64,000 nucleotides of DNA from Escherichia coli (GTDB taxonomy: Bacteria; Pseudomonadota; Gammaproteobacteria; Enterobacterales; Enterobacteriaceae), in NCBI RefSeq assembly GCF_024298765.1, contig NZ_CP101210.1. One strand, given 5' to 3'. The notes beneath the pieces are model-generated. The model was not told the DNA's origin. It did no database searches and worked only from the letters and a program-made list of their open reading frames with translations. Below, piece by piece: positions 9,650 to 48,180 of this stretch (within the stretch, counting starts at the first letter, position 1; each line of letters opens with the position of its first letter). The position numbers and the translations under genes were made by a program.

Positions 9650-10404
9650 ACCTTCTTTATCGCCTGCCGAATGACGCTGTTCAGCGATTCGATGGCTATC
9701 GTCGTGTCCGGGCTATTCTCAGACGGCAGTCTTAACGAAGGACTGCAGTTCGTGAATGCAAATCGCGTTTATCGAATAATGAGCGAGAATAACCTGTTGT
9801 TATTACATGACAAACCTTCACGACCGCAGAGGGAACATAAAGGCCCGAATATCGGTGAAGGAAAGCGACCCGCGCTGGTGTGCCGATGGCTTTGAGTTCG
9901 GTTGTGATGATGACGAAAAACTGCGTGTCACGTTCGCACTGGACTGTTGCGATCTTGAATCCATAGACTGGGCCGCAAGCACGGGAGGTTATGGCAAAGC
10001 AACGGTGCAGGATGTCATGTCAGGAGCGATAGAAAAACGCTTTGGCGATAGACCGGGATGGCCCATCCAGTGGCTGACCGATAACGGTTCGGCTTATACA
10101 ACTCATGAAACACGGCAGTTCGCCAGAGAGTTGAATCTGGAGCTCTGCACGACGGCAGTCAGTAGCCCTCAGAGTAATGGAATGAGAGAACGGTTCGTGA
10201 AAACGATGAAGAGCGATTACATCAGTATCATACCTAAACCGGACGGGTTAATGGCAGCAAAGAACCTTGCAGAGGCGTTCGAGCATTATAACGAATGGCA
10301 TCCGCATAGTGCACTGGGTTATCGCTCGCCACGGGAATATCTACGGCAGCGGGCCAGTAATGGGTTAAGTGATAACAGGTGTCTGGAAATATAGGGGCAA
10401 ATCC
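9650..10404 (+). mobile_element. IS2-like (IS3 family) element, 3' portion only; ends at IS2 right terminus GGGGCAAATCCA
   Basis: Encodes InsD-like C-terminal region; last ~150 bp identical to the IS2 fragment at 38287-38436. Confidence 0.7.
9671..10394 (+). pseudogene. insD: IS2-like transposase InsD (OrfB), 5'-truncated and frameshifted
   Basis: Frames 9671-9895 and 9807-10394 together give NANRVYRIM...WCADGFEF...WLTDNGSAY...[29 protein letters not shown]. Confidence 0.7.
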
Positions 10405-10650
10405 ATTTCGCAAGCAAAGACTCTGGTAAATACTCGTCATATTTATCCAGATCCTTATCAGGAACAACTGTAGCAGGCTCAAATTCTGAAGGTGCAAAAT
10501 GGCATCTGAATCGATCACGACTTGGCATGCTTCCGATCATTGATTGGCATCCTGCCAGTCGTATCGTAAGCGTAAACCGACCGCCGTATGTAGCCATTAG
10601 ACAAGAATTGGTAACTTAGACGCCCATCTGACACAGACGGACATCTAAGT

Positions 10651-11070
10651 ATGGAATTGCAGGACTGGCGAAAAGAACCTCGTAAAAAGTATTCGAATGA
10701 ATTCAAACTTCGTATGGTTGAACTGGCATCACAACCCGGTGCTTGTGTGGTCCAGATTGCACGAGAAAATGGCGTCAATGATAATGTTATATTCAAATGG
10801 CTCAGACTCTGGCAAAACGAAGGGTGTATATCGCAGCGTCTTCCGGTGACAACCACTTCTGACGCAGGCGTTGAATTATTACCTGTAGAGATAACGCCTG
10901 ATGAGCCGAAAGAACCGGTGGCTGCTCTTACTCCGTCTTTATCCACCCAGACTACTGTCAGTGCCAGCTCCTGCAAGGTGGAGTTCCGTCACGGTAACAT
11001 GACGCTGGAAAATCCTTCACCAGAGCTGCTCACTGTGTTGATCCGTGAACTGACCGGGAGGGGACGATGA
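10651..11070 (+). CDS. tnpA: IS66-family TnpA
   Basis: 139-aa ORF MELQDWRKEPRKKYSNEFKLRMVELAS...; overlaps tnpB start (ATGA). Confidence 0.7.
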   Translation: MELQDWRKEPRKKYSNEFKLRMVELASQPGACVVQIARENGVNDNVIFKWLRLWQNEGCISQRLPVTTTSDAGVELLPVEITPDEPKEPVAALTPSLSTQTTVSASSCKVEFRHGNMTLENPSPELLTVLIRELTGRGR

Positions 11071-11417
11071 TCTCACTCCCGTCAGGCACCCGCATCTGGC
11101 TCGTTGCCGGCGTTACCGATATGCGTAAATCCTTCAACGGACTGGGAGAACAGGTACAGCATGTGCTGAATGATAATCCCTTCTCCGGTCACCTGTTCAT
11201 CTTCCGTGGCCGACGGGGTGACACGATTAAAATCCTGTGGGCTGATGCTGATGGTCTGTGCCTGTTCACCAAACGCCTGGAGGAAGGCCAGTTTATCTGG
11301 CCTGCGGTGCGTGACGGCAAGATATCCATTACCCGCTCGCAACTGGCAATGCTCCTCGATAAGCTGGACTGGCGTCAGCCAAAAACATCCCGTCTTAACG
11401 CACTGACAATGTTGTAA
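11067..11417 (+). CDS. tnpB: IS66-family TnpB
   Basis: 116-aa ORF MISLPSGTRIWLVAGVTDMRKSFNGL..., canonical IS66 orf2. Confidence 0.75.
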   Translation: MISLPSGTRIWLVAGVTDMRKSFNGLGEQVQHVLNDNPFSGHLFIFRGRRGDTIKILWADADGLCLFTKRLEEGQFIWPAVRDGKISITRSQLAMLLDKLDWRQPKTSRLNALTML

Positions 11418-11447
11418 AAATGTCATGGCCGGATTATAAAAACGGTC

Positions 11448-12212
11448 ATGAGTCAGAAATACCTCATTCGGATCACTGAGCTGGAAAGGTTGCTCTCTGA
11501 GCAGGCTGAAGCCCTCCGTCAGAAAGACCAACAACTGAGTCTGGTTGAAGAGACGGAGGCCTTCCTGCGTTCTGCGCTGGCACGTGCCGAAGAAAAGATC
11601 GAAGAAGATGAGCGGGAAATAGAGCATCTGCGGGCCCAGGTGGAAAAACTGCGCCGGATGCTGTTCGGTACCCGTTCTGAAAAACTGCGTCGTGAAGTTG
11701 AACAGGCTGAAGCCCTGCTGAAACGACGCGAACAGAACAGCGATCGTTACAGCGGGCGTGAGGATGACCCGCAGGTTCCCCGCCAGTTGCGACAGTCGCG
11801 TCATCGTCGCCCGTTACCGGCGCATCTGCCCCGCGAAATAAACCGCCTGGAGCCAGAAGAAAGCTGTTGCCCGGAGTGTGGTGGTGAGCTGGATTATCTG
11901 GGGGAAGTCAGCGCAGAACAACTGGAACTGGTGAGCAGCGCCCTGAAAGTGATCCGCACAGAACGGGTAAAAAAAGCCTGTACAAAATGTGACTGCATCG
12001 TTGAAGCACCGGCACCGTCCCGTCCGATAGCGCGTGGTGTCGCGGGCCCGGGGTTACTTGCCCGCGTGTTAACGGGAAAATACTGCGAACACCTGCCACT
12101 GTATCGTCAGAGTGAAATCTTTGCCCGTCAGGGTGTCGAACTGAGCCGTGCGTTACTCTCCAACTGGGTTGACGAGCTCCTGCCATGGAACGTAGCACTC
12201 ACCAATAAATAA
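11448..12212 (+). pseudogene. tnpC: IS66-family transposase TnpC, N-terminal fragment (254 aa of ~520)
   Basis: Coiled-coil N-terminus, CPECGGELDYL zinc motif, HLPLYRQSEIFARQGVELSRALLSNWVDELLPW, then premature stop. Confidence 0.7.
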
Positions 12213-12437
12213 GTATCAATACGGCACTCCGTTAACGCTTACTGAAACGACGCCGGGGACCATCTTCTTTTGGGTAAAAAAGGCCGCGCCAGAATTCGAC
12301 ACGACCACTGCTATATGCGTATTATTCTGTTCCGGGAGATTGCCTCTCTTCTGGTTATTCAGCAATACAACGGACAAAAAGCACTGGCATAAATAACCCC
12401 TTGTTAAACGGAGAATAGTGATAATGTATTGACGCTA

Positions 12438-13685
12438 TTACTCATTTCTCATCTTCATCCTTCGGGTAAGCAGAGTCGCACAAATGAATCCCAGCAGACT
12501 AAATGCCACCATTACAGAAAAAACATAGTTATAGCCCTGTATGCCAGAAAAATTATCTAACAGCGAACCATAAAGCGTGTAAGCAAACATGGAAGGCATG
12601 TAACCAATAATGCACCCAAACGCCATTGCTGAACCAGCAAATTCTCTGGGGGTACCGATTTCATCCATTGGCGCAAAAAAAATTGCCCGTTGTGAAAAAA
12701 TGATTGCACCAAATCCAAGAGTTGCAGTCATTCCAAGATAAACATTCATTGAGTCGTGTGGTAGTTGAATAAAAAGTAGCATAGCGACTGCTGAAATAAG
12801 GAAAGTCCATTTCAGATAGATGACCGGAGAATGAGAAATTTTATCTGCGAGATAACCGCCAACTGGCCCGCCCACCATTTTTAGTCCGTACTGGTTAATA
12901 ATCCCGTAAGCACCCACGAGTGCAACGGGAAGGGCATAGATATCTTTCAGGAATGGTATGAAATATGTTAGCCCACAATATGCGGAGTACACAAAGAATA
13001 TACAAAATGAGGCCAGCCACAGATTTGGTGATTTAACGACATTCTTTATCCCCTTGAATATCTGTTTATTAACATCTTCGTCATTCTGTGGAATGGTCCT
13101 GTCGTCTGCATCCACAATAAAGTAGGTGATAATTCCAACAATAATGGTGATTAATGTGTAATAAACAAGACCAGCCTGCATGCCAGCTTTTCCTTCGCCA
13201 AACTGCACAAAGACGAATAAAGCGCCGGACGCAATTAATACATCCACGACTCCTCGTCCAGCTTCCAGAAAGCCGAACATACGTCCCTGTTCATCCCTGT
13301 TCCCCAACAGACGAACAGCTTTAAGTAGCACGGGCCAGTAGACCACTTCGCCAAAGAAAGCCATAGCACCAAAAGCTATAAGGTAACCAGAGAAGGGGGG
13401 TAATGTTGTGAGGTAAGCGCCGCACAGACCCACACCGATTAAACCTGCAGGAAGAAGTATTTTTTTGGAAAAGCGATCTGCTATATATAATGAACTAAAT
13501 AGTCCGATAGTCTGAACAGCAGCATATATTGTAAATCCAAAGCCAATCTGTGTATTAGTCAATCCCCAGTCAGCCTGCATAGGAACATAAAATACGTCCT
13601 TCATACTGGACAATTTGAAAATTGTCCCACCGCCAAGAATAAGGAAGCATAGCTTCATCCATTTATTCATCTGGTTATCCCCCAT
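12438..13685 (-). CDS. MFS transporter
   Basis: 415-aa polytopic hydrophobic ORF; start overlaps RidA stop (TAATG). Confidence 0.7.
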   Translation of the reverse strand: MGDNQMNKWMKLCFLILGGGTIFKLSSMKDVFYVPMQADWGLTNTQIGFGFTIYAAVQTIGLFSSLYIADRFSKKILLPAGLIGVGLCGAYLTTLPPFSGYLIAFGAMAFFGEVVYWPVLLKAVRLLGNRDEQGRMFGFLEAGRGVVDVLIASGALFVFVQFGEGKAGMQAGLVYYTLITIIVGIITYFIVDADDRTIPQNDEDVNKQIFKGIKNVVKSPNLWLASFCIFFVYSAYCGLTYFIPFLKDIYALPVALVGAYGIINQYGLKMVGGPVGGYLADKISHSPVIYLKWTFLISAVAMLLFIQLPHDSMNVYLGMTATLGFGAIIFSQRAIFFAPMDEIGTPREFAGSAMAFGCIIGYMPSMFAYTLYGSLLDNFSGIQGYNYVFSVMVAFSLLGFICATLLTRRMKMRNE

Positions 13686-14062
13686 TATTTGATAACCGCA
13701 ATGGCTTCAATTTCTATCAGCACGTCTTTCGGTAATCTGGCGACTTCAACACAGGACCTGGCCGGGTATTTGTCTGATGAGAAATATTCACTGTACAGAA
13801 GGTTAAATTGAGAAAAATTATCCATGTTACTGATAAAACAGGTTGTTTTTACGATGTTATCCATTCCGATTCCTGCAGATTCAATAATTGCCTTCAGATT
13901 ATCCATCGCTTGCCTGGTTTGCCTTTCTATAGTCTCGCCATTTACGGTTCCGTCTTCTGGTTTGAAAGGACAACATCCGGAAATGAACAATAAATTACCA
14001 GTTGATACTGCCTGTACATAGGGACCGATAGCTTTGGGGGCATGTTTAGTATCAATGATCAT
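13685..14062 (-). CDS. RidA/YjgF family reactive-intermediate deaminase
   Basis: 125-aa ORF MIIDTKHAPKAIGPYVQAV...SCVEVARLPKDVLIEIEAIA, typical RidA. Confidence 0.8.
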   Translation of the reverse strand: MIIDTKHAPKAIGPYVQAVSTGNLLFISGCCPFKPEDGTVNGETIERQTRQAMDNLKAIIESAGIGMDNIVKTTCFISNMDNFSQFNLLYSEYFSSDKYPARSCVEVARLPKDVLIEIEAIAVIK

Positions 14063-14083
14063 AAAAGTATCCTTTTAAATTTA

Positions 14084-15043
14084 TTAACAATATTTTTTTC
14101 TTAAATTCTTCAGAGTCTGAACAGAAACCTCAACACAACGATTTTGGGCTGCCATTAGTTCCTGTAATACAGAGTCAGATATTTTGGCAGGGTAGTAATA
14201 ATCAAGTGGCTTTATTTTCAGGTGTTCAAATGGTGCCTCTTTTACGGAGAATGCCCCTTCCAGAGAATATACGCCGCCAGTACCCTTTGGACGGGCAAAA
14301 GGTGAGGCATATGGGAAACATGTTTCGATGTTTATTCTGGTTAAAGAGGACTCTTTAACCAGAGTTTTAAAGCAGGTATCAATATCAATGCTTCCTTCTC
14401 CGACAGGAACACCACAGACAACCAGGTCTTCGCCGTTGCGTGTGACAATATGATCCTTGAAATGCGTGCTGTAAGCATAAGGAGCCAGTTTACGAACTGT
14501 TTCTACTGGTTCTTCCCATGCCATCATTCCATTACCTATATCACAGTGTGCTCCCACCCACTCAGAATTAACAGATTTGATAACTTCGATTATCTCGTCG
14601 GCAGTTTCATCTTCATGGTTTTCTATTGCCAGTTTAATTTTCTTTCTACTGAGTAAGGATGTCAGTGATTTTAACTGTTCTACTATTTCCGGATATTTCA
14701 GAGGGTTATATTCTCCTCTCCTGAACATATAAGTTCGGATAACTTCTGCTCCAAGTGCAGATGCAATTTCCACTGCTCTGGTGATAGCTTCACAGGAAGT
14801 GAATCGGGTATCTATCTCACAATAAAGACCATGAGAATCAATGGATTTTCTGACTTTTGACAGATATTCAGGAGATATACTGTTCAGGACACCAAATTCC
14901 GGATGCAGACCAACATCCGGAATGATATTAATTTCGACCCCATCCAGCCCCAGTTCACTGGTTTTATCAATGAAGTCGAAAATATCCATCATTCCCTGCT
15001 GAAAGAACAGATGATATGACTCAGTCTCAAGGCCTAGTTTCAT
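14084..15043 (-). CDS. sugar phosphate isomerase/epimerase (xylose isomerase-like TIM barrel)
   Basis: Start chosen at MKLGLETESYHL with GGAGG 7 nt upstream; family assigned from overall resemblance to sugar-phosphate isomerases, not verified. Confidence 0.6.
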   Translation of the reverse strand: MKLGLETESYHLFFQQGMMDIFDFIDKTSELGLDGVEINIIPDVGLHPEFGVLNSISPEYLSKVRKSIDSHGLYCEIDTRFTSCEAITRAVEIASALGAEVIRTYMFRRGEYNPLKYPEIVEQLKSLTSLLSRKKIKLAIENHEDETADEIIEVIKSVNSEWVGAHCDIGNGMMAWEEPVETVRKLAPYAYSTHFKDHIVTRNGEDLVVCGVPVGEGSIDIDTCFKTLVKESSLTRINIETCFPYASPFARPKGTGGVYSLEGAFSVKEAPFEHLKIKPLDYYYPAKISDSVLQELMAAQNRCVEVSVQTLKNLRKKYC

Positions 15044-15228
15044 GGCGAACCTCCATAGTATTTGAGACTGATTGTAGTTTTTTATACATTTGTAAAATGT
15101 GATCAAAGTAGAATAATTTCTCACTTAGTGAATAAATTTACTACCTGGTGTTATTTTGAGCCACTTTGGTGGACTCTGTTCTGCATCTGGTATAGCATTC
15201 AGATGTACTTTGTTCATGAGGTTATTAT

Positions 15229-15891
15229 ATGAAATCTATTGTTAATCATGAGTTTACTGAGGATGACAGGCAGCTTTTGCTCTCATATATTCCATTCATC
15301 GACAGTCTTGGTCAGTTCTTGGGTGAGTATTGCGAGATCGTCCTGCATAGTTTTGAGGACTTGCATCATTCCGTTATTCATATCGTTAACGGGCATGTGA
15401 CGGGGAGAGAGAAGGGGGCACCTGTAACAAATATAGCACTGGAAAAACTGGCAGAATTTAACTCAACAAACGATATGTGGGATGTCTATTTCAACCATAA
15501 AGGCGTTCGCCCTTTTAAATCATCGTCATCACTTATTCTGAATAAAAATAAAGAACCAGTAGGTATGATATGTATGAACTTTGCTCTGGATATGCCTCTT
15601 AATGCATTTATTGAAAACTTTGCAAAATCGTCAAACTGTAAAAACGAAAATTTCACTCAGGATATCAATAATCTTGTGCTTAGTCACCTTGAACCTGTTA
15701 AAAATATGGTTTACTCCAATAAGAATATACCAAGTAAAAACAAGAACTTTGAAATAGTAAAAGAACTTAATTCTATTGGGTTGTTTAAGTTCCCGGTTAC
15801 AACAAAAATTGTTTCATCGGTTCTTGGTATCAGTGCTAACACTATTTATAAACATCTCAGGGTATTAAATAATAAGGGGAAGGAGAATTAA
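15229..15891 (+). CDS. YheO-like transcriptional regulator (PAS-like N-domain plus C-terminal HTH)
   Basis: Motif CEIVLHSFEDLHHSVIHIVNGHVTGREKGAPVTNIALEKL matches YheO family; divergent from the isomerase operon. Confidence 0.7.
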   Translation: MKSIVNHEFTEDDRQLLLSYIPFIDSLGQFLGEYCEIVLHSFEDLHHSVIHIVNGHVTGREKGAPVTNIALEKLAEFNSTNDMWDVYFNHKGVRPFKSSSSLILNKNKEPVGMICMNFALDMPLNAFIENFAKSSNCKNENFTQDINNLVLSHLEPVKNMVYSNKNIPSKNKNFEIVKELNSIGLFKFPVTTKIVSSVLGISANTIYKHLRVLNNKGKEN

Positions 15892-16009
15892 GGTGTCTGT
15901 ATTCTGAACTTATAAGTAAGTTGTTTGTCTGAAGCGTATTGATATTTATTTTTCGGTTAGAGCAACTTTCTAGGGAAACAGATCGCGTATCCAGTTTGCC
16001 TGTCATTCC

Positions 16010-16290
16010 TAGATATGTTCAATGACGTAACGCAGCCATTTTTCTGGAGCCATATTGTTCAGACGGCATGTACCAATCCGCAGGTACAGCATCGCCGCAT
16101 CCTCAAGTAATGCCGGTAATTTGGGGCGTAATTCTGTTGCGCTTTTACTGAACACAATGCCGTATTCAGTAAGAAGTCCAAGAACATGATCTATCAGTTG
16201 TGTCCTTCCATCGAGATCAACCGATGCATTTTCAAAAAAGCCTGGACGTTCTGTAGGTCCAGACTTTTTATTGGTACCAGTCGTATAGTT
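16010..16290 (-). pseudogene. IS66-family transposase C-terminal remnant (no start codon)
   Basis: Hand translation ...AMLYLRIGTCRLNNMAPEKWLRYVIEHI* fits IS66 TnpC C-terminal pattern (A.L..LI.TC.LN...P..WL..V). Confidence 0.35.
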
Positions 16291-16823
16291 CTATATTGAT
16301 AGGTTTCAGCTATTGCTGTGCGTTGTTATAATCATTTTTCTGACGCCATTGATAAGATTTAACATGTTGTGCTGGATGCAATATTACATCATAGTTGAGT
16401 TCCCTTATTTCCTGTGGGCAGTGATGGGATGTCCCGCAAGCCTTCATCGCAACGGTCATTTTGGCTGTTATACCAGCCAGTTAAGCAGTTGGTTGTGAGA
16501 AAGTTTGATCTTTCCCGCGTGATTGCCACGAGCATTGATACTGAAAAGATAAAAGTTCGTTTTAGCCTGAGCGATGTCGGTAATTTTCTGTTCAATCATG
16601 GCCTTTCTCTTACTTTTGTGGTTAAAATTTATTCGCTATGGCGCAATTGAAAGCGGTCGTGAAGGTGGGGGAAGACTATCTCATCACTTACCATATTTCC
16701 GACATATTCTCACAACAAAATACCACGTAACTATTGATGAATATTGTTCTCTCCTGAGCAGCGTTTATGCTTTAATTGCTAAATCGATTTAATTAGTTTA
16801 GCAATTAGTATATTGGAGCCTTT

Positions 16824-17744
16824 ATGAGCACAAGAGTATGGGTACTTGGTGATGCGGTTGTTGATTTATTACCCGAAAGCCAGGGGAGACTACTACAGTG
16901 TCCTGGCGGGGCGCCTGCTAATGTTGCAGTCGGTATCGCAAGGCTGGGGGGGAAAAGTGCCTTTATTGGCAAAGTTGGCGATGATCCTTTCGGTCGCTTT
17001 ATGTATCAGACACTGAGTACAGAAAATGTTGATACACGTTATATGTCTCTTGATCCTCAACATCGCACCTCAATTGTGGCTGTAGGACTTGATGAGCAAG
17101 GAGAAAGAAACTTTACCTTTATGGTACGCCCAAGTGCCGATCTTTTTTTACAACCTGATGGCCTTCCTGCATTTGGGCCGGGTGAATGGCTCCATCTTTG
17201 TTCCATTGCGCTCAGTGCAGAACCTTCCCGAAGTACCGCATTTCTGGCTATGGAGAAAATACGTCAGGCTGGCGGAAACATCAGTTTTGATCCCAATATC
17301 CGCAGCGATCTCTGGCAGAGTGAAGCGCTATTAAGGAAATACCTTGATCGCGCACTTTCGCTGGCGAATATCGCTAAATTGTCCGAAGAAGAGTTGCTAT
17401 TCATCAGTGGCGAAAGCCAGGTTCAGCAAGGCGCATATTCATTAGTACAACGTTATTCGTTGACTTTATTGCTTATCACACAAGGAAAAAATGGCGTACT
17501 TGTGTATTTTCAGGGGCAGTTTATCCACTATCCCGCCAAACCTGTTTCTGTCGTCGATACGACCGGGGCAGGAGATGCTTTTGTCGCTGGATTACTTGCC
17601 GGTCTGGCTGATTCTGGAATACCAACAAATACCAGACAGCTTGAACGAATCATTGTACAAGCTCAGATTTGTGGTGCTCTGGCGACCACGGCTAAAGGCG
17701 CGATGACCGCCTTACCCCGACAACACGATCTCCCTTCACAATAG
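16824..17744 (+). CDS. scrK: fructokinase
   Basis: 306-aa PfkB-family ORF with GAGDAF motif; first gene of scr regulon. Confidence 0.85.
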   Translation: MSTRVWVLGDAVVDLLPESQGRLLQCPGGAPANVAVGIARLGGKSAFIGKVGDDPFGRFMYQTLSTENVDTRYMSLDPQHRTSIVAVGLDEQGERNFTFMVRPSADLFLQPDGLPAFGPGEWLHLCSIALSAEPSRSTAFLAMEKIRQAGGNISFDPNIRSDLWQSEALLRKYLDRALSLANIAKLSEEELLFISGESQVQQGAYSLVQRYSLTLLLITQGKNGVLVYFQGQFIHYPAKPVSVVDTTGAGDAFVAGLLAGLADSGIPTNTRQLERIIVQAQICGALATTAKGAMTALPRQHDLPSQ

Positions 17745-17887
17745 TGATCCTGCTGTTGTATCTGTAACCCGATTTGTCGTGCCTGTCACATTTACTAAAT
17801 CGGTTTAGCGAAAATAATTGCTTTGGCTAAAAAGTCAGCTTTATTATCAACACCTAAACCGGTTTAGCATTTTAGCAATTTTTATAA

Positions 17888-19429
<1,542 letters not shown>

Positions 19430-19489
19430 TACCAGACAACCTCACAGATGTGAAGTTTTTACTGAAATAACAATGAATTAGAGGGTTAT

Positions 19490-20860
19490 ATGGATTTCGA
19501 TAAAATCGCCCAATCGTTGCTTCCTTTATTAGGTGGTAAGGAGAACATCGCCAGTGCAGCACATTGCGCCACTCGCCTACGGCTGGTACTGGTTGACGAC
19601 ACACTTGCCGATCAACATGCCATTGGCCAGATTGATGGAGTGAAAGGTTGTTTTCGTAATTCAGGGCAAATGCAAATTATCTTTGGCACCGGCGTGGTTA
19701 ATAAAGTCTATGCTGCCTTTATTCAGGTTGCAGGTATTAGCGAATCCAGTAAAGCAGATATCGCTCGACTCGCCGCTCAAAAACTCAATCCTTTTCAGCG
19801 AATAGCACGGCTACTTTCTAATATTTTTGTCCCCATCATTCCAGCCATTGTTGCTTCTGGTTTATTAATGGGGCTTCTGGGAATGGTGAAAACATATGGC
19901 TGGGTGAATACCGATAATGCGATTTATATCCTGCTGGATATGTGCAGTTCAGCCGCATTTATTATTCTCCCCATCCTTATTGGCTTTACTGCTGCTCGTG
20001 AATTTGGTGGAAATCCTTATCTTGGCGCGACATTAGGAGGGATTCTGACTCACCCGGCACTCACAAATGCCTGGGGCGTTGCTGCGGGATTTCAGACAAT
20101 GAACTTCTTCGGTTTTGAAATCGCCATGATTGGCTATCAGGGAACGGTTTTCCCCGTGCTTCTGGCAGTATGGTTTATGAGCATAGTGGAAAAACAGTTA
20201 CGCAGGTTTATCCCTGATGCTCTGGATCTCATTCTGACGCCATTTCTGACTGTCGTCATTTCTGGCTTTATCGCTCTTTTGATTATTGGTCCGGCAGGAC
20301 GAGCGTTAGGTGACGGTATCTCTTTCGTTCTCAGCACGCTGATTGCACACGCAGGCTGGTTAGCAGGGTTGTTATTCGGCGGGCTATATTCAGCGATTGT
20401 TATTACGGGTATTCATCATAGCTTCCACGCAATTGAAGCAGGACTTTTAGGTAACCCTGCAATCGGTGTTAATTTCCTGCTGCCTATTTGGGCAATGGCA
20501 AACGTTGCGCAAGGCGGTGCATGTCTGGCGGTATGGTTTAAAACCAAAGATACAAAAATTAAAGCAATCACCCTACCCTCGGCCTTTTCCGCAATGTTAG
20601 GGATTACTGAAGCCGCTATTTTTGGTATCAACCTTCGTTTTGTTAAACCTTTTATTGCGGCCTTAATTGGTGGCGCTGCCGGCGGTGCCTGGGTTGTCTC
20701 TGTTCACGTTTATATGACTGCCGTTGGTCTGACCGCAATACCCGGCATGGCAATCGTTCAGCCAACATCGTTGGTTAATTATATTATTGGAATGGTGATT
20801 GCTTTCGCTGTCGCTTTTAGCCTCTCTTTATTATTCAAATACAAAACGGACGAGGAGTAA
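19490..20860 (+). CDS. scrA: PTS sucrose-specific EIIBC component
   Basis: 456 aa; EIIB Cys motif AAHCATRLRL followed by polytopic EIIC. Confidence 0.9.
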   Translation: MDFDKIAQSLLPLLGGKENIASAAHCATRLRLVLVDDTLADQHAIGQIDGVKGCFRNSGQMQIIFGTGVVNKVYAAFIQVAGISESSKADIARLAAQKLNPFQRIARLLSNIFVPIIPAIVASGLLMGLLGMVKTYGWVNTDNAIYILLDMCSSAAFIILPILIGFTAAREFGGNPYLGATLGGILTHPALTNAWGVAAGFQTMNFFGFEIAMIGYQGTVFPVLLAVWFMSIVEKQLRRFIPDALDLILTPFLTVVISGFIALLIIGPAGRALGDGISFVLSTLIAHAGWLAGLLFGGLYSAIVITGIHHSFHAIEAGLLGNPAIGVNFLLPIWAMANVAQGGACLAVWFKTKDTKIKAITLPSAFSAMLGITEAAIFGINLRFVKPFIAALIGGAAGGAWVVSVHVYMTAVGLTAIPGMAIVQPTSLVNYIIGMVIAFAVAFSLSLLFKYKTDEE

Positions 20861-22269
20861 TGTCGATGCCTTCACAAATGCCCGCGATTTTACAGGCAGT
20901 GATGAAAGGTCAGTCCAAAGCACTGGCAGATGCCCACTATCCTTGTTGGCATCTCGCTCCCGTCACCGGACTAATGAACGATCCAAATGGCTTTTGCTGG
21001 TCTGGAGGCCGCTATCATCTGTTTTATCAGTGGAATCCACTGGCTTGTGATCATAAGTACAAATGTTGGGGGCACTGGAGTTCGACGGATTTATTGCACT
21101 GGCAGCATGAACCATTAGCGCTAATGCCCGATAAAGAGTACGACCGTAATGGTTGTTACTCAGGAAGCGCGGTTAATAATCAGGGCGTTCTCACACTTTG
21201 CTATACCGGTAATGTTAAGTTTGATGATGGCAGCAGAACGGCATGGCAATGTCTGGCCACCGAAAATAACCAGGGCGGGTTTGATAAACTAGGCCCTGTC
21301 ATATCGTTACCTGATGGTTACACCGGACATGTTCGTGATCCAAAAGTCTGGAAGCACAACAGCCAATGGTACATGGTGCTTGGCGCGCAAGATAAAGAGA
21401 AACGGGGGAAAGTGCTGCTGTATTCCTCTGTCGATCTGAATACCTGGTCTTTTCATGGAGAAATTGCTGGTAACGGTCTGAATGAAATAGATAACGCAGG
21501 ATACATGTGGGAATGTCCTGATCTTTTCGCCCTTGATGGTGAATACATTCTCCTCTGTTGCCCCCAGGGAATGGTGCGCGAACATGAGCGCTATCTGAAT
21601 ACTTATCCCTGCGCCTGGCTACATGGACAGTTTGATTACGAGACAGGCAAATTTACGCATGGCGCTTTCTCAGAGCTGGATGCGGGATTTGAATTCTATG
21701 CACCACAGACGATGGAAGCCCCGGACGGGCGACGATTGCTGGTCGGCTGGATGGGGGTTCCTGATGGCGAAGAGATGTTGCAGCCAACCAGAAAGCATCA
21801 TTGGCAGCATCAAATGACCTGTTTTCGCGAACTCTCATTCCAGAAGGGAAAATTGTTTCAGATGCCAATCAGGGAACTCGCGCAACTGCGTGAAGCTGAA
21901 CACTTCTGGCAAGGAAAAGCGGATCATGCGCCGCATGTCGAAATTGAACGCCTGGAAATGGACATCATTCCGTCGGGTGAGCTGTATCTGAATTTTGGCA
22001 ATGCGCTGGCACTGCATCTTAATGACGATGGTATTCAACTACAGAGGAGAAGCCTTGCAGGGCAAGAGAAACTAACTCGTTACTGGCGAGGAAGCGTAAC
22101 GTCACTGAAGATTCTCTGTGACAGTTCCAGCGTAGAGATATTCATCAATAATGGTGAAGGTGTAATGAGTAATCGTTATTTTCCCCATCATCCAGCTTCG
22201 CTGATATTACAGGGTGAGTCTGACGTCACGTTACGCTACTGGTCGCTACGCGCCTGCATGGTAGAATGA
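20860..22269 (+). CDS. scrB: sucrose-6-phosphate hydrolase (GH32)
   Basis: 469 aa with GH32 motifs [27 protein letters not shown]. Confidence 0.9.
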
Positions 22270-22294
22270 GGGTTTTGAATTACGGATCCTCGTC

Positions 22295-23302
22295 GTGAGA
22301 AAAACCAAACGCGTTACTATTAAAGACATTGCTGAACTGGCGGGAGTGTCGAAAGCAACCGCCAGTCTGGTTCTCAATGGTCGTGGCAAAGAGTTACGTG
22401 TTGCGCAGGAAACGCGTGAGCGTGTGCTGAGTATTGCCCAACAGCAGCATTATCAGCCCAGCATTCATGCCCGCTCATTACGGGACAACCGCAGTCATAC
22501 CATTGGTCTCGTCGTTCCTGAAATCACTAACTACGGATTTGCAGTATTTTCCCATGAACTGGAAACATTGTGTCGGGAAGCGGGCGTCCAACTCCTCATA
22601 TCCTGTACTGATGAAAATCCTTCACAGGAAACAATGGTGGTGAACAATATGATTGCCCGCCAGGTTGATGGGTTAATCGTCGCATCCAGTATGCTGCATG
22701 ATAATGACTATCAAAAACTTAGCGAGCAATTACCTGTTGTGTTGTTCGATCGCCACATGAACGGCAGCACATTGCCATTGGTCATTACTGACTCTGTTTC
22801 TCCCACCGCCGCTCTGGTGGCAGATATTGCACGGAGTCACCCGGATGAATTCTATTTTCTGGGGGGACAACCCCGTTTGTCACCGACTCGCGATCGACTG
22901 GAAGGATTTACACAAGGCTTGCAGCAAGCCGGAGTAACGCTACAACCTGAATGGATTATTCACGGTAATTATCATCCGAGCTCAGGCTATGAAATGTTTG
23001 CCGCGCTATGCGCTCGTTTAGGACGTCCTCCTAAAGCCTTATTCACTGCCGCTTGTGGATTACTGGAAGGCGTTCTGCGCTATATGAGCCAATATAATTT
23101 ACTCGACAGTACAATCCACCTGGCGAGTTTTGATGATCATTATTTGTATGATTCACTTTCGGTAAGAATCGACACAATACAACAGGATAATCGCCAACTT
23201 GCTTTTCACTGCTTTGAGCTTATTTCGCAACTGATTGAAGGTGAAACGCCATCCCCATTACAGCGTTATCTTCCTGCCAGTTTACAAAAACGCTATAGAT
23301 AA
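22295..23302 (+). CDS. scrR: LacI-family sucrose operon repressor (GTG start)
   Basis: 335 aa; N-terminal [26 protein letters not shown]; follows scrB. Confidence 0.85.
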
Positions 23303-23853
23303 TTTATTAATTATCTTATGTAGCTGAGTATTAGGTGACAAATGATCAGTCTTTCCCACGACAATTGTATCGTTCTGATGAACTCATATTGACGCATTTT
23401 TCGGGCGTATCAGCCCCCGGTGTTACGAATGGTGCATACGAACGATCGCAGTTTGACGATGGTTGATTTATTTTGTTGCGCAGGGGCAATCGCCTGCTAG
23501 GTACCGAAGGCTGGCTCTGAAGTACTGAGTCGGGTGATCGCGTCTGGCCGCTGGCTGCGAATTACTGACACGGGATTGGTGGCAGGTGATGAAATCCTGT
23601 CCCGGAAATGGCTCCGGATTGATTCAAGTTCTGACCCGCTGTCAGCCCGCGTGGTTGCTGCTCTGGCTCATTTCCTGTCGTCAGTTTTCTCATGCCCGGC
23701 TGCGGGTTTTCGGACTGAATGATAATATCTGACGACAGGAGTCGCTCATCTATCGAAGGTAAATCTCCCTGAAAGTAATAGTTCTGGCAGGGGGAACAGA
23801 ACTGTAATCATTGTGCCGTAATTTGAGTTGGCTACCTTTGCTACATGAAAACT

Positions 23854-24327
23854 TTATTCACTTTGTTCATGTTGATTGGGTTTTTCAATGAGGAAAGTTT
23901 CCAGGGTACAATCTCCATTAACCTGTTTCCGCAAAGCAAGTGGCATTTTACCGTTACCAGACCACGTCCTGGTTTCGCCGTTCTCATCCTCAAAGATATA
24001 TTTCGCTTTTCTCACACCGCCTTTGGGTTTTCGTTTGGTTTCCGTTGTCCCTGCAATAGCAGAAACTGGACCCTGCCATTCTTCCGGGTCAAGCCCCACA
24101 GAAACGATGTACTCAAATACCTGTTGACATTTAGTTTCCAGTTCCTTACGTTCAGCCGCTTTTCGTTCAGCATCTTCACGGCGTTCTTCAATAACAGTGT
24201 TGAGCTTTTCCTGCATGTCGAGTAATTGCTCAAAATCAAGTTCGCGTACATACGTGCGTAGTGAACGAATATTCGTCATTGTCCGACTGATGATGCTGTA
24301 TTCTTCTTCTTTAGTCAGTTTGCACAT
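23854..24327 (-). CDS. H-NS family nucleoid-associated protein (island-borne paralog)
   Basis: NIRSLRTYVREL oligomerisation N-terminus and C-terminal DNA-binding motif AKYIFEDENGETRTWSGNGKMPLALRK; GAGG RBS upstream of ATG. Confidence 0.8.
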   Translation of the reverse strand: MCKLTKEEEYSIISRTMTNIRSLRTYVRELDFEQLLDMQEKLNTVIEERREDAERKAAERKELETKCQQVFEYIVSVGLDPEEWQGPVSAIAGTTETKRKPKGGVRKAKYIFEDENGETRTWSGNGKMPLALRKQVNGDCTLETFLIEKPNQHEQSE

Positions 24328-34549: not shown

Positions 34550-34834
34550 ATGTCATACCGTTCAGCAGCCAGCGTTGCCTTCCCCGGCTGCTGTTATTGT
34601 AAGGCATTTTCGTTAAGAATGCAGAAGGAGAGGAGCGTGAGATTGCTGTTAAAAGGGCTCGTCGGAATGGCGCTGGCCTGGCTTGTTATTGGTTTCGGGA
34701 TGGAGTTATTTTTTCTCGCCGATCGGGTTCATCCGGCATTAAGAGTAATCGTTGGCCTGGGGATGTTATTCCTGATGATAATGATTGCGGGTGGTATGTG
34801 CGGTTCTCTTCTGTCACGAAAGAAAACATCATGA
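34550..34834 (+). CDS. small hydrophobic membrane protein (2 TM helices), hypothetical
   Basis: ORF with two hydrophobic stretches; true start may be the internal Met at 34622. Confidence 0.35.
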   Translation: MSYRSAASVAFPGCCYCKAFSLRMQKERSVRLLLKGLVGMALAWLVIGFGMELFFLADRVHPALRVIVGLGMLFLMIMIAGGMCGSLLSRKKTS

Positions 34835-34886
34835 CGTTCCTGTTTACGCCGCTACATTTGTGGTGGCTTTATGATTATTCAGAATA

Positions 34887-36560
34887 ATGAATTCACCTGT
34901 CGCGGCATGTTCAGCGACCAGCGCCGGACAGAAATATCGCTTTTTCTCAATTATTATGAAAATTAATCTTCCGTTCATACACTGGTCACGGATTAGCAAT
35001 GATAAGCGCCTCGTGTTATCAGTGGTTGTCTTTACCCTTTCTAATCTCCTTGTATCCTCAGGAGCGCATCTGATTTACCGGATATTATTCTTTATCCTGG
35101 CACTTCTTATTATTAAGGCAATGAAATCGATTACGTTGCGTTTGATTCTTGCCTTCCCGTTCACATTACTGACTGCTGCAGATATCAGTATCAGCCTGTA
35201 TTCATGGTGTACATTTGGCACAACATTTAATGATGGTTTTGCAATCAGTATCCTTCAGACAGATCCTGATGAAGTAATAAGAATGTTCAGGATGTATGTT
35301 GTTTATGTTATCGCATTTATTATCCTCTTTTTATTGTTCTTCTGTTCAGCAATAAATAAAACGTCCTCATTGCCATCGGAAAAGGTCACGGTAATTACAT
35401 TTTTATTGTTAATTACAGTAACGTTATATTCTTCCTTCCAGTTTGCGTTGAAGAAACAGTATCAAATAAATGAAGTTGATCCTTACATAGTCGCTTCCCG
35501 GTTTGCCACATATACCCCTTTCTTTAATCTGAACTATTTTGCACTGGCCGCAAAGGAGCATCAGAGATTAATGACGATTGCTGATACCATACCTCACTAC
35601 GATCTGGTGATTACGGATAACAACACTGACGTATTTGTTCTGGTGATTGGTGAATCTGCAAGGACTGATAACATGTCCATTTACGGGTATTCGCGCCCTA
35701 CCACACCAGAGCTTCAGAAACAGAAATCACGACTGAAACTGTTCACTCAGGCAATCAGTGGCGCACCTTACACCGCGCTGGCTGTTCCACTGGCGTTATC
35801 TGCCGATAGTGTACTGCATCATGATATCCGTAATTACCCTGATAACATTATCAACATGGCGAATCAGGCGGGGTTCGATACCTGGTGGCTCAGTGCGCAG
35901 TCCGCTTTCCGACAGAACGGAACGGCTGTGGCCAGTATCGCCATGCGGGCCAGAAACAGAATTTATGTCAGAGGCTATGATGAGTTACTGCTCCCACACC
36001 TGGCTGAAGCACTGAACAGTAATCCGGGGAGCAGGAAACTGATTGTTCTGCATCTGACGGGCAGCCATGAACCGGTTTGCAGTAACTGGCCCAGAGATAA
36101 AGCCGTGTTTAAACCGCTGGATACAGAAGAAGTCTGTTACGATAATTCCATTCATTATACCGACAGTTTGTTGGGACAGGTTTTCACCATGCTGGAAACG
36201 CGTCAGGCATCCGTCATGTATTTTTCAGATCACGGTCTGGAGTATGACCCGACAAAAGAACATGCCTATTTTCATGGTGGAATAAAACCCAGTCAGCAGG
36301 CTTATCATGTTCCGATGTTTATCTGGTACAGCCCGGCACTGGGAGAGCATGTCGATCGCCAGACGGTGAACAGCGTTTTTTCCACTGCGTATAATGATTA
36401 TCTGATTAATGCATGGATGGGCGTAACCAGACCGGCTCAACCGAAAACGCCGGAGGAGGTGATTACCCGCTGGCAGGGGAAATCCGTGGTTTTTGATGCC
36501 AGTCATAACGTGTTTGATTACAAAGTATTACGAAAGAACTTTAATGAACTCCAGGAATAA
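34887..36560 (+). CDS. phosphoethanolamine transferase, sulfatase superfamily (YhbX/EptA-like)
   Basis: N-terminal TM helices plus motifs VLVIGESARTDNMSIYGY, HLTGSHEP, YFSDHGL; close to remembered E. coli YhbX; start may be Met at 34956. Confidence 0.75.
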   Translation: MNSPVAACSATSAGQKYRFFSIIMKINLPFIHWSRISNDKRLVLSVVVFTLSNLLVSSGAHLIYRILFFILALLIIKAMKSITLRLILAFPFTLLTAADISISLYSWCTFGTTFNDGFAISILQTDPDEVIRMFRMYVVYVIAFIILFLLFFCSAINKTSSLPSEKVTVITFLLLITVTLYSSFQFALKKQYQINEVDPYIVASRFATYTPFFNLNYFALAAKEHQRLMTIADTIPHYDLVITDNNTDVFVLVIGESARTDNMSIYGYSRPTTPELQKQKSRLKLFTQAISGAPYTALAVPLALSADSVLHHDIRNYPDNIINMANQAGFDTWWLSAQSAFRQNGTAVASIAMRARNRIYVRGYDELLLPHLAEALNSNPGSRKLIVLHLTGSHEPVCSNWPRDKAVFKPLDTEEVCYDNSIHYTDSLLGQVFTMLETRQASVMYFSDHGLEYDPTKEHAYFHGGIKPSQQAYHVPMFIWYSPALGEHVDRQTVNSVFSTAYNDYLINAWMGVTRPAQPKTPEEVITRWQGKSVVFDASHNVFDYKVLRKNFNELQE

Positions 36561-36703
36561 TTCGTTAAAGTAATTTACGACTCTATTCTTTTTTAAAGGA
36601 AACTTTCAGAAAATGCCCCCAGGGCGATAACCTGGGGAAGGGGGACTGTGTTATTACTGGTGGATAAATTATTACTTGTTTGAAAGATACACTAATGCAA
36701 TAT

Positions 36704-37723
36704 CTACTGATGCTGGATGCTTGAGTGTTTCATTCCTGCTGCTGAAAACGGCAATATCCAGGGCCAGACATATTCACCGTTAATATTTCTGCATTTCTGT
36801 ACAATTTCCTCAGAAAGTGTCTCATCAATTCTTTCCCGCAACAGCTTCTGCTGTCTTAAAATGCTTTCGCATATTTCGAAATCATCTTCCTGCATCAGCA
36901 TTTCGGCGCATTTAATGATTTCTGCTCGTTCATGCAGCACAGAGGAATGGTTATAGAGCCAGTTTACAAACAGCAATGCTTCCGGATATTGTCCCCATAA
37001 TGGTGAGTATGTTGCATAGTAATCTTCTGCCGTATCCAGAGAGCCGGAGAAGTTATGCCGCACAGCAAGTGGAAATGGATGCAAATTTCCGCACAGCATT
37101 TCCGCGATGTAAGTGTTTGTAGCAAAGCCATGACGAAAAGCTGTGGCAGCCTTAACATGTTCCCCATTCAGAAAATGCAGAAGACCAAGTTCATACCAGT
37201 AAGGTGAAAATTCATCAGCATGCTCTTTCAGTACACTGAAGGCTTGCTTATGATCGCCTGTTCGTAACAGTTCTGAGCCCAACAACCAGCGGGCACCCTG
37301 ATTATCTTCAGGATTGTATGCCAGTATTTTATCAGTGAGCATAACCGCATCCTGATGACGCTGTAAGTGCACATTTGCGAGAATTGTTGCATAAAGCGCG
37401 CGCAGATAAGGGCGGTTTTCGGGATGCATCCAGATGATTTCACCACTGAAACTTTCCGGGATGAGACGATTACCTGCCGCCAGTCCTTTAAGAGCGGCGT
37501 TCAGTGCCTTACGCGGGGCATTCTGCTCCAGAAATGCATATGCCAGATGAGCGTGTATATCAATAAAGTCAGGCTCCTGTTGAGCAAGGCGTCTGAGTTT
37601 GTTGATATAACCCGTCTCACTGATTTCATCAGTGTCGTATGCATCAAGCACTTCTTCAAACTCCCCCAGTAATGGGCCAAACCAGGTATCCGGAAATACG
37701 AAACGACCCTGGTTATTGTTCAC
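36704..37723 (-). CDS. TPR-like hypothetical protein, probably 5'-truncated by IS1 (listed start is GTG abutting the IS1 end)
   Basis: 339-aa ORF whose frame stays open into IS1 at 37733; helical-repeat-like sequence; no family recognised. Confidence 0.45.
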   Translation of the reverse strand: MNNNQGRFVFPDTWFGPLLGEFEEVLDAYDTDEISETGYINKLRRLAQQEPDFIDIHAHLAYAFLEQNAPRKALNAALKGLAAGNRLIPESFSGEIIWMHPENRPYLRALYATILANVHLQRHQDAVMLTDKILAYNPEDNQGARWLLGSELLRTGDHKQAFSVLKEHADEFSPYWYELGLLHFLNGEHVKAATAFRHGFATNTYIAEMLCGNLHPFPLAVRHNFSGSLDTAEDYYATYSPLWGQYPEALLFVNWLYNHSSVLHERAEIIKCAEMLMQEDDFEICESILRQQKLLRERIDETLSEEIVQKCRNINGEYVWPWILPFSAAGMKHSSIQHQ

Positions 37724-37787
37724 TTCAAAGCGGGTGATGCTGCCAACTTACTGATTTAGTGTATGATGGTGTTTTTGAGGTGCTCCA

Positions 37788-38063
37788 GTGGCTTCTGTTT
37801 CTATCAGCTGTCCCTCCTGTTCAGCTACTGACGGGGTGGTGCGTAACGGCAAAAGCACCGCCGGACATCAGCGCTATCTCTGCTCTCACTGCCGTAAAAC
37901 ATGGCAACTGCAGTTCACTTACACCGCTTCTCAACCCGGTACGCACCAGAAAATCATTGATATGGCCATGAATGGCGTTGGATGCCGGGCAACAGCCCGC
38001 ATTATGGGCGTTGGCCTCAACACGATTTTACGTCACTTAAAAAACTCAGGCCGCAGTCGGTAA
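37788..38063 (+). CDS. insA: IS1 protein InsA
   Basis: 91 aa [48 protein letters not shown]... Confidence 0.9.
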
Positions 38064-38425
38064 CCTCGCGCATACAGCCGGGCAGTGACGTCATCGTCTG
38101 CGCGGAAATGGACGAACAGTGGGGCTATGTCGGGGCTAAATCGCGCCAGTTCGCCCGGATGTTGGGACTTGAACCGAAGAACACGGCGGTGCGGAGTCCG
38201 GAGAGTAACGGCATAGCAGAGAGCTTCGTGAAAACGATAAAGCGTGATTACATCAGTATCATGCCCAAACCAGACGGGTTAACGGCAGCAAAGAACCTTG
38301 CAGAGGCGTTCGAGCATTATAACGAATGGCATCCGCATAGTGCACTGGGTTATCGCTCGCCACGGGAATATCTACGGCAGCGGGCCAGTAATGGGTTAAG
38401 TGATAACAGGTGTCTGGAAATATAG
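37982..38425 (+). pseudogene. chimeric ORF: IS1 InsB N-terminus (56 aa) fused in frame to IS2 InsD C-terminus
   Basis: [16 protein letters not shown]...GAKSRQ then [34 protein letters not shown]...NRCLEI; junction at CGCCAG 38143-38148. Confidence 0.75.
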
Positions 38426-39002
38426 GGGCAAATCCACTGCATGACAAAGTCATCGGGCATTATCTGAACATAAAACACTATCAATAAGTTGGAGTCATTA
38501 CCGACGAAGCGATAGCGATAATGACTGAAAGCGGAAAAATAAAAACAAATTGAATAATGTGTTTGGTAATGAATTTATCGGGGGGAATTGGGCATATCTA
38601 CCGCTTACGTCGAGCCGCTCACACCCGGTCAATGACCTGACAATCTCCCGGCAAGTCCCGACGTCGGGACTTGCGCCCCTGACACCGAAAAATAGCAGGA
38701 ACCCGCTCGCTACGGGTCCTCAGCTCAGTGCAAACCTGACTCAGCTCCTGCATTGCATCCCCGAAATTACCACACTCAGTACTTCATCACCTGCCACCAA
38801 TACCCGTGTCAGTCCTTCGTGACCTGACGCAATTACCCGACTCAGAGCTTCAGAGTCAGCCGCCGGTACCTGCCCGGTGCTCGCCCCTGCGCAACCAAGA
38901 TAAATCGACCATTGGCAGACTGCGATCATTCGTATGCATCGCTGATGACGCGCCCGAAAAACGCGTTAATGTAAGTGTGGAACAATACTTTGTTACTATG
39001 CA

Positions 39003-40397: not shown

Positions 40398-40591
40398 TTT
40401 ACCCCCTTAAATAAAAACAAATGTGGGTACTCTTATATTCTCTGTATCAACACAAAATACCATTCATATTCTTCACCAGACTGGTATATATAATCGCAAC
40501 ACATTACCAAAAGCACACAGCAAAGATAATTAATGTGTACTGGCAAAGTAATGACAGATAATGTCAGAAAAAATACTGATATCGATATGTC

Positions 40592-43299: not shown

Positions 43300-43361
43300 T
43301 ATTCTTACCCTCACGGGATAATATTGAGAAACAGGACGGAGCTGAGGCTCCGTACCTCTCT

Positions 43362-45488: not shown

Positions 45489-45526
45489 AAGACATTCTCC
45501 TTTCTCAGGGATGCCTTACTGTTGAT

Positions 45527-45561
45527 CCGAAACGTTTCGGGTATCAACCAAAACGTTTCGG
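45527..45561 (-). promoter_or_regulatory. putative RafR operator pair (two LacI-type palindromes) in rafA promoter
   Basis: CCGAAACGTTTCGG (45527-45540, perfect) and CCAAAACGTTTCGG (45548-45561) between rafR stop and rafA start. Confidence 0.55.
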
Positions 45562-45583
45562 ATATGTGAGCTGGATAAAAAAA

Positions 45584-46594: not shown

Positions 46595-46743
46595 ATTATC
46601 TCCTGCTAATTATTATAGTAGACCGTCCCCCTAAATCTCCAGACAACCAATATCACTTATTGTAAGTTAACGGAATCCCTCTGATCTGTAAGATCAGAGG
46701 GAAAGGTTATTGATTGTGAGAATAATTTCAGGACAAAGTGTAA

Positions 46744-48104: not shown

Positions 48105-48180
48105 TGGTGCCCGGACTCGGAATCGAACCAAGGACACGGGGATTTTCAATCCCCTGCTCTACCGACTGAGCTATCCGGGC
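48105..48180 (-). tRNA. pheV: tRNA-Phe (anticodon GAA)
   Basis: Reverse complement reads GCCCGGATAGCTCAGTCGGTAGAGCAGGGGATTGAAAATCCCCGTGTCCTTGGTTCGATTCCGAGTCCGGGCACCA; pheV rather than pheU inferred from neighbouring yqgA-speC. Confidence 0.95.

Follow-up and report, generated by a model that had tools for sequence, protein, structure and literature searches.

Inert IS2-type 3′-end remnants as direct repeats around a 28-kb scr and blaCTX-M-14 block in a pheV island of Escherichia coli

Introduction

The genomic island GI-pheV has been described as a series of modules parted by insertion sequence (IS) elements, and deletions of whole modules have been ascribed to the IS on their flanks (PMC11537424). 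Copies of IS that border a module also mediate the tandem amplification of resistance genes (PMC12892994), and the minimal efficient processing segment (MEPS) for recombination by RecA/RecBCD has been put at 23–27 bp (PMC12074656). Here, we analyse a stretch of 64,000 nucleotides of an Escherichia coli chromosome (RefSeq assembly GCF_024298765.1, contig NZ_CP101210.1; hereafter, the window), in which two direct repeats related to the 3′ end of IS2 bracket a 28-kb segment carrying the sucrose genes scr, the extended-spectrum beta-lactamase (ESBL) gene blaCTX-M-14 and a candidate defence module. Our main conclusion, to which we assign a probability of about 0.8, is that the two repeats are inert IS2-type 3′-end remnants acting as passive direct homology within a mosaic pheV island.

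The locus belongs to the GI-pheV type. Annotation of identical sequence identifies a tRNA-Phe gene (pheV, window 48105–48180, minus strand), which is the island integration site, in the context of the neighbouring yqgA and speC and with a P4-type tyrosine integrase gene adjoining. The island of PMC11537424 shares this site and integrase type, as well as a mosaic structure separated by IS and modules that are present or absent among strains. The modules themselves differ, being here scr, WYL/PDC genes, a phosphoethanolamine transferase and raf-like genes (the main text of that paper mentions neither sucrose, raffinose nor IS2), and the flanking homology is here cut down to IS2 remnants of 153–293 bp, with joints resolved to the nucleotide. 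With the RecA-dependent deletion and amplification between direct repeats such as IS or rrn operons (PMC12892994), our locus has in common repeats longer than MEPS and the same expected outcomes for a resistance-bearing unit; in contrast, its repeats are short (153 bp) and lie 28 kb apart, so that events should be rare, and for this strain the rearrangement itself is a prediction. In comparison with IS2 (IS3 family, 1,331 bp), the right copy is 99% identical to nucleotides (nt) 1039–1331 and both copies end at the right terminus, but both are fragments, and in the left one the 5′ 548 bp derive from an ISEc48-like element, which makes it a hybrid. The loss of IS-flanked GI-pheV modules by homologous recombination is already well known, and the present example is sound but ordinary, not conceptually new. 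Its nucleotide-level joints, an ISEc48-like/IS2 hybrid in two alleles and single-IS2 islands marked by an orphan IS1 end, nevertheless make it a clean worked example of GI-pheV remodelling by IS remnants.

Results and discussion

An ungapped base-by-base comparison anchored at both ends, together with pairwise alignment, delimited a perfect direct repeat of 153 bp on the plus strand, with the left arm at 10253–10405, the right arm at 38284–38436 and a start-to-start spacing of 28,031 bp. The original prediction, made by reading the window alone, had placed two identical segments in direct orientation at ~10255–10404 and ~38287–38436, within 1–3 bases of these limits, and the 153 bp of uninterrupted identity far exceed the floor of 50 bp that it had set for itself. 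Its estimate of ~150 bp of identity was accurate, whereas the ~220 bp given for the wider similarity was too low: the arms resemble each other over 298 bp at 86% identity. Upstream of the perfect repeat, identity amounts to 86%, 70% and 60% in successive 50-bp bins, and it is random beyond positions 10108 and 38139. In a repeat scan of the whole window, this was the sole family of repeats of at least 60 bp, which excludes a chance origin. Two independent assemblies, both complete, those of ECJXMCRH7 (from chicken) and 8GC (from mink), show the same structure at 100% identity, so that an assembly artefact can be ruled out.

The right copy is an IS2 fragment nested in IS1. It covers 38144–38436 (plus strand), corresponds to IS2 nt 1039–1331 with 98.98% identity in local alignment to full IS2, has neither the left end nor an intact transposase and is annotated in RefSeq as an ‘integrase core domain’ pseudogene without N-terminus. 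Direct reading of its flanks showed, on the left, IS1 nt 1–417 (37733–38149, plus strand; 98.3% identical to IS1B of SC516), fused to the IS2 interior through a 6-bp overlap (38144–38149), and immediately on the right, nt 703–768 of the same IS1, including its right end (38437–38502, plus strand; 98.5% identical to IS1B). An IS2 thus inserted in an IS1, and a later deletion at the 6-bp microhomology took IS1 nt 418–702 and IS2 nt 1–1038. The resulting IS1::IS2::IS1 chimera (37733–38502) measures 770 bp, close to the 768 bp of an intact IS1, and keeps both IS1 ends; its mobilisation in trans as a non-autonomous IS1 derivative is possible in principle, and its 9-bp flanks match at 6 of 9 positions.

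The left copy is of mixed origin. Its first part, which we call X (9694–10241, plus strand), was recognised by sequence matches and by the Pfam domains rve and rve_3 as the 3′ part of an ISEc48-like element of the IS3 family. It starts roughly 620 nt into the full ISEc48 element, its 5′ end being truncated by an IS66-family remnant, and it is 84–87% identical to ISEc48 and ~73% to IS2; in RefSeq it is a frameshifted pseudogene without N-terminus. Among the 5,426 complete E. coli genomes that we searched for all genome comparisons, X matched about 60 at 99.8% identity up to 10241, and the X-type matches in ~1,100 genomes end at that same base. Next comes the crossover interval (10242–10245, plus strand), between the last X-specific G at 10241 and the first IS2-specific G at 10246, and then the IS2 3′ terminus (10246–10405, plus strand; ~IS2 nt 1172–1331), which closes with the right inverted repeat end ...GGGGCAAATCCA and matches the full IS2 present at the same site elsewhere. 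Bar known allelic positions, it is identical to the full IS2 of SC516 and PK8276, both followed by the same flank TTTCGCAAGC. The perfect match to the right copy starts at 10253, past a T/C difference at 10252, a position variable among IS2 copies. It is because of this ISEc48-like/IS2 hybrid nature that the identity of the arms stops near the 10241–10246 crossover. The claim that both segments are IS2 3′ ends was correct in that both finish at the IS2 right inverted repeat, but it missed the hybrid on the left and the split IS1 around the right copy.

Both copies retain the right terminal inverted repeat and the 3′ part of orfB, which encodes the DDE integrase core, with rve and rve_3 domains. 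No exact IS2 left-end motif occurs in the window, where the only candidate is a degenerate solo copy of 41 bp situated 8 kb beyond the right copy, and both copies are 5′-truncated pseudogenes. Devoid of a left end and of an intact transposase, they cannot transpose and represent only portable homology. The solo left-end-like sequence (46619–46659), 90% identical to IS2 nt 1–41 and oriented as the two 3′ remnants, lies between a raf-like regulator gene and the island integrase. The raf-like module (38503–46618) thus has an IS2 right end as its left border and an IS2 left end as its right border.

This anatomy leaves little room for an active role of the repeats. IS-derived sequence at both ends and accessory cargo between them recall a composite transposon or an IS-mobilised translocatable unit driven by IS2 transposase, yet only right ends are present, in direct orientation, and no left end or intact transposase accompanies either of them. 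The bases flanking the two right ends differ (TTTCG versus CTGCA), the scr block with these ends was not seen as a unit at other loci, and the reciprocal joint was found in none of the genomes. Functional ends on both IS and an outer target duplication, which define such a transposon, are lacking and the flanks are unrelated, so that we give this interpretation practically no credence. It is likewise very improbable that the repeats are att-like sites on which a site-specific recombinase, for example the island P4-type integrase, carries out a programmed and possibly reversible excision. A tyrosine integrase gene does lie ~8.3 kb to the right of the right copy, and excision through a 113-bp direct repeat, by an unknown mechanism, has been reported for wzy in Salmonella (PMC12074656). 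However, the repeats are made of transposase-gene and inverted-repeat sequence of a multicopy IS (an IS-derived query matches nearly every genome), recombinase genes are absent within the module, and the crossover points vary by lineage, which is typical of general and not of site-specific recombination. We rejected att sites on these anatomical grounds.

The two repeats, read as passive homology, can be placed in a history of rearrangements by comparison with other islands. In most related islands, that of SC516 among them, a complete IS2 of 1,331 bp abuts the flank TTTCGCAAGC. The X remnant also occurs in SC516, where it has a distinct 3′ end of its own and precedes that IS2 by 22,206 bp, in the same orientation; the interval holds the gene of a 1,652-aa AAA protein, several IS, EAL and PIN genes and a fimbrial operon, and the window is collinear with SC516 on either side of this 22.2-kb gap. 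The left copy is thus the scar of a former deletion of 22.2 kb, which fused the 3′ ends of two IS2-family elements in direct orientation: a crossover of the ISEc48-like remnant with a full IS2 removed the interval. This X/IS2 joint exists in only 3 of the 5,426 genomes. FDAARGOS_1287 has the same deletion with another crossover, in a 14-bp block of identity (window-equivalent 10194–10207), and with different IS2 alleles, which implies either two independent events or a single event followed by conversion or heteroduplex segregation. Beside this variant joint, we observed a cluster of 22 single-nucleotide polymorphisms (SNPs) in the IS66 tnpB region (window 11000–12000 versus FDAARGOS_1287), within an otherwise nearly identical stretch of 24 kb; it resembles a gene-conversion patch from another IS66 copy.

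Around the joints, X and IS2 are ~88% identical and share perfect blocks of at most 17 bp, so the scar joints formed in homeologous DNA. That crossovers in blocks of 4 bp and 14 bp gave the same 22.2-kb deletion suggests either repeated homeologous or RecA-independent events, or one event with an unrepaired heteroduplex that segregated into two lineages. The C-terminal integrase-core region of IS2-family elements might even be a recurrent deletion hot spot with no need of long perfect homology, an idea that we consider quite unlikely. If such events were frequent, the 28-kb scr/bla/defence block could be a switchable module, reversible after re-acquisition, and not the subject of a rare accident.

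Products of crossovers between IS2 ends were sought in the genome set. A full IS2 directly abutting the IS1 end and the porin flank was found in 18 genomes, 12 of which have cytochrome b562 as left flank, preceded by IS1, RelB and a type I restriction-modification system. The order in 702/18, PKF4 and PK8275 is cytochrome b562, full IS2, IS1(703–768) and porin. In PK8276, the order is cytochrome b562, full IS2, IS66, scr and further genes up to the tetratricopeptide repeat (TPR) gene, IS1::IS2::IS1 and porin; this type of arrangement is known from 3 genomes, namely PK8276, 2020N21-246 and a derivative of the latter. When the two IS2 ends of PK8276 were crossed over in silico, the product aligned with 702/18 and PKF4 as a single high-scoring segment pair of 25.6 kb at 99.7% identity, and with PK8275 over 23 kb at 99.90%. 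A crossover between PK8276-type IS2 ends would give exactly the arrangement, devoid of the scr block, that is present in twelve genomes (PK8275, PK8261, PKF4, PKF11, 702/18, EF5-18-41, 1517k, 98232, GF43, 23CRST007, 23CRST012 and VTB97420v). The predicted kind of recombinant appears, judging from these alignments, to exist in nature.

The empty site of the right IS2, that is, the cytochrome b562 flank directly joined to the porin flank, occurred in 0 genomes, and this search revealed that the ‘porin flank’ starts with the last 66 bp of IS1. No perfect target-site duplication surrounds the full IS2 copies, the match in 702/18 (CTGC-IS2-CTGC) being of 4 bp only. The junction of full IS2, IS1 end and porin has at least two further unrelated left flanks, in DETEC-S560 (locus 17190–20554) and in a second locus of EC17CM2 (11484–13331). 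They consist of a NotI-family restriction-modification system and a lysozyme-inhibitor/PTS (phosphotransferase system) region, at a locus without annotated tRNA-Phe beside the integrase, and neither has a target duplication. Several unrelated left flanks indicate that the distal part of the island has been swapped repeatedly at this IS2.

Whether these islands record a loss or a gain of the block depends on the polarity of the change. Islands whose left position is occupied by a full IS2 (PK8276, 2020N21-246) exist alongside the 12 single-IS2 genomes without the block. In the latter, the full IS2 has the 66-bp IS1 end beside it, its left flank is not IS1 and there is no 5-bp target duplication, from which it follows that recombination gave that IS2 a new left side. 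Since IS1(1–417) and IS1(703–768) are the two halves of one IS1, the single-IS2 form is derived at that junction. A single intramolecular crossover, i.e., a deletion, would be the simplest candidate route to the single-IS2 islands.

Several observations weigh against this interpretation. The joint specific to the lineage of the window (9694–10405 followed by 38437–39200, that is, the X/IS2 hybrid, the IS1 end and the porin) was found in 0 of the 5,426 genomes. At a coverage of at least 80%, its query retrieved 19 places, 18 of them the full IS2 copies beside the porin flank and the last one in SMS-3-5, where two IS2-like fragments lie 1.2 kb apart; we discarded SMS-3-5 as a deletion product, its upstream piece being an unrelated X-like sequence (84%). 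A joint made of the SC516 left flank, IS2 and the right flank was also absent from all the genomes, a result that looked contrary until PK8276 revealed cytochrome b562 as the relevant left flank, and so was the reciprocal joint of a duplication or a circle (TPR-IS1::IS2 followed by the IS66 flank). The comparison with related genomes that the original prediction had proposed as a check was thus favourable for the left scar and the 12 single-IS2 genomes, which are consistent with deletion, and negative for the joint of this lineage. The homology at the left scar is below the quoted MEPS, and the 22.2-kb event may not have been classical RecA recombination. In addition, the five markers of the last 293 bp all show the left-type allele in PKF4 and PK8275 and are mixed in 702/18; for the former two, a deletion from a PK8276-like parent would require either mismatch correction or a crossover within the final 31 bp. 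The block could equally well have been acquired by a double crossover with an SC516-type donor.

In such a history, the direct repeats would be the footprint of the acquisition of the scr block and the 12 ‘deleted’ genomes would be ancestral: a recipient with a single IS2 beside the IS1 end and the porin would have gained the block through homologous recombination, with IS2 providing the homology at one end and the conserved raf-like/int module at the other. Single-IS2 islands do outnumber PK8276-type ones (12 genomes against 3), and the IS2 of PKF4 and PK8275 is identical to the left IS2 of PK8276 at 34 of 34 variable positions, 3′ markers included. The exchange of blocks between islands is also evident, window 30626–37037 being 98.0% identical to 8GC versus 99.9% for 1410–25851. 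Over 30626–37037, all six RefSeq protein accessions are common to ECJXMCRH7 (100% identity to the window in each piece compared) and EC17CM2, where the same bla block stands beside a different, unrelated left half without scr. The drop in identity and the shared accessions suggest that islands have exchanged the bla-bearing half through homologous recombination. SNPs relative to 8GC cluster from ~24 kb of the window onwards. Against acquisition, the IS1 halves have one orientation and are parted only by IS2, which makes TPR-IS1 to the left of IS2 the older arrangement, and the left flank of the single-IS2 form, neither IS1 nor with a target duplication, marks that form as derived. We therefore regard acquisition as possible but rather doubtful. 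The same homology would be used either way, and the choice changes the history of the block but not the nature of the repeats.

With the repeats taken as passive homology, we propose that the 28-kb block of this strain would be lost if its 153-bp arms underwent a RecA-dependent crossover. Length supports the original claim that homologous recombination between the arms could remove the interval (153 bp of perfect direct repeat versus a MEPS of 23–27 bp), and the comparative arrangements are consistent with it; as to products, the counts are 0 of 5,426 genomes for the lineage-specific joint and 12 for the analogous PK8276-type one. The excised circle, with no origin, integrase or usable IS ends, would be lost, and with it scr, blaCTX-M-14, the WYL/PDC genes and the phosphoethanolamine transferase; a crossover between sister chromosomes would instead duplicate the block. 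In this lineage, a sucrose PTS regulon, blaCTX-M-14, a phosphoethanolamine transferase and a candidate defence operon stand on one chromosomal block that a single crossover could remove or duplicate. ESBL and sucrose phenotypes could therefore vary among isolates of one clone, or amplification could give rise to heteroresistance.

In practice, this is a modest point. The 4-kb stretch across the right junction (TPR gene, IS1::IS2 and porin gene) occurs in 211 of the 5,426 genomes and scrKYABR in 986, which means that the repeat pair accounts for at most a small part of the variation in sucrose genes. It had been suggested as a possible source of both sucrose and ESBL variation between strains; the first holds for that small part at most, and for the second we found no link, bla being a separate ISEcp1 insertion in 3 genomes.

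The content of the bracketed segment agrees with what had been announced for it, scr, bla and a candidate defence module all being borne out by annotation and by Pfam and PADLOC matches. From left to right, it begins with an IS66-family remnant (tnpA, tnpB and a truncated tnpC; 10406–12200, plus strand, RefSeq annotation of identical sequence), followed by genes of the major facilitator superfamily, RidA and isomerase types, a regulator and the sucrose PTS regulon scrK-scrY-scrA-scrB-scrR (16824–23302, plus strand, RefSeq annotation). The genes of an H-NS paralogue and of an outer membrane protein separate scrKYABR from the ISEcp1 unit described below. The candidate defence module (30628–34234, plus strand) comprises a helix-turn-helix (HTH) regulator with WYL and WCX domains (Pfam), 5′-truncated by the ISEcp1 unit, and proteins of 359 and 523 aa. 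PADLOC scored the regulator as WYL (2e-22), the 359-aa protein as PDC-M09A (3.5e-22) and the 523-aa protein as PDC-M40B (1.3e-42). The latter has no Pfam match, and its RefSeq name, ‘ATP--cob(I)alamin adenosyltransferase’, looks doubtful. A phosphoethanolamine transferase with a sulfatase domain (34887–36560, plus strand) and the TPR protein gene adjoining the IS1 left end (36704–37723, minus strand), both identified by annotation and domain match, complete the segment.

The unit carrying blaCTX-M-14 was inserted into the bracketed block independently and has no relation to the IS2 repeats. According to annotation, this ISEcp1 transposition unit (25843–30625, minus strand; 4,783 bp) consists of ISEcp1, an IS10-type element (ISVsa5), blaCTX-M-14 (26715–27590), an IS903 fragment and 0.2 kb of extra DNA. 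The ISEcp1 left end is present, with the captured bla gene downstream, and the unit is flanked by a 5-bp target duplication (TTTGA, at 25838–25842 and 30626–30630) for which 8GC provides the empty site. It resembles other ISEcp1-blaCTX-M-14 units in its ISEcp1 left end, downstream bla, IS903 fragment and 5-bp duplication, and differs from them in the IS10-type element that parts ISEcp1 from bla. The unit sits ~40 bp into the WYL regulator gene that heads the candidate defence operon; it removes the start of this gene and the native promoter, which may change the expression of the PDC-like genes downstream. EC17CM2 and CM2 have the same insertion, and the WYL site is occupied in this way in only 3 of the genomes searched.

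ECJXMCRH7, although 100% identical to the window in other respects, has a second ISVsa5/IS10 copy, inserted between the HTH regulator and the isomerase gene (window-equivalent ~15044–15228). In its locus, the two copies lie at 16743–17951 and 30782–31990, the additional one being inverted relative to the copy of the ISEcp1 unit. Between this pair lie scrKYABR and blaCTX-M-14, and through this Tn10-like inverted arrangement the 13-kb segment could be mobilised or inverted.

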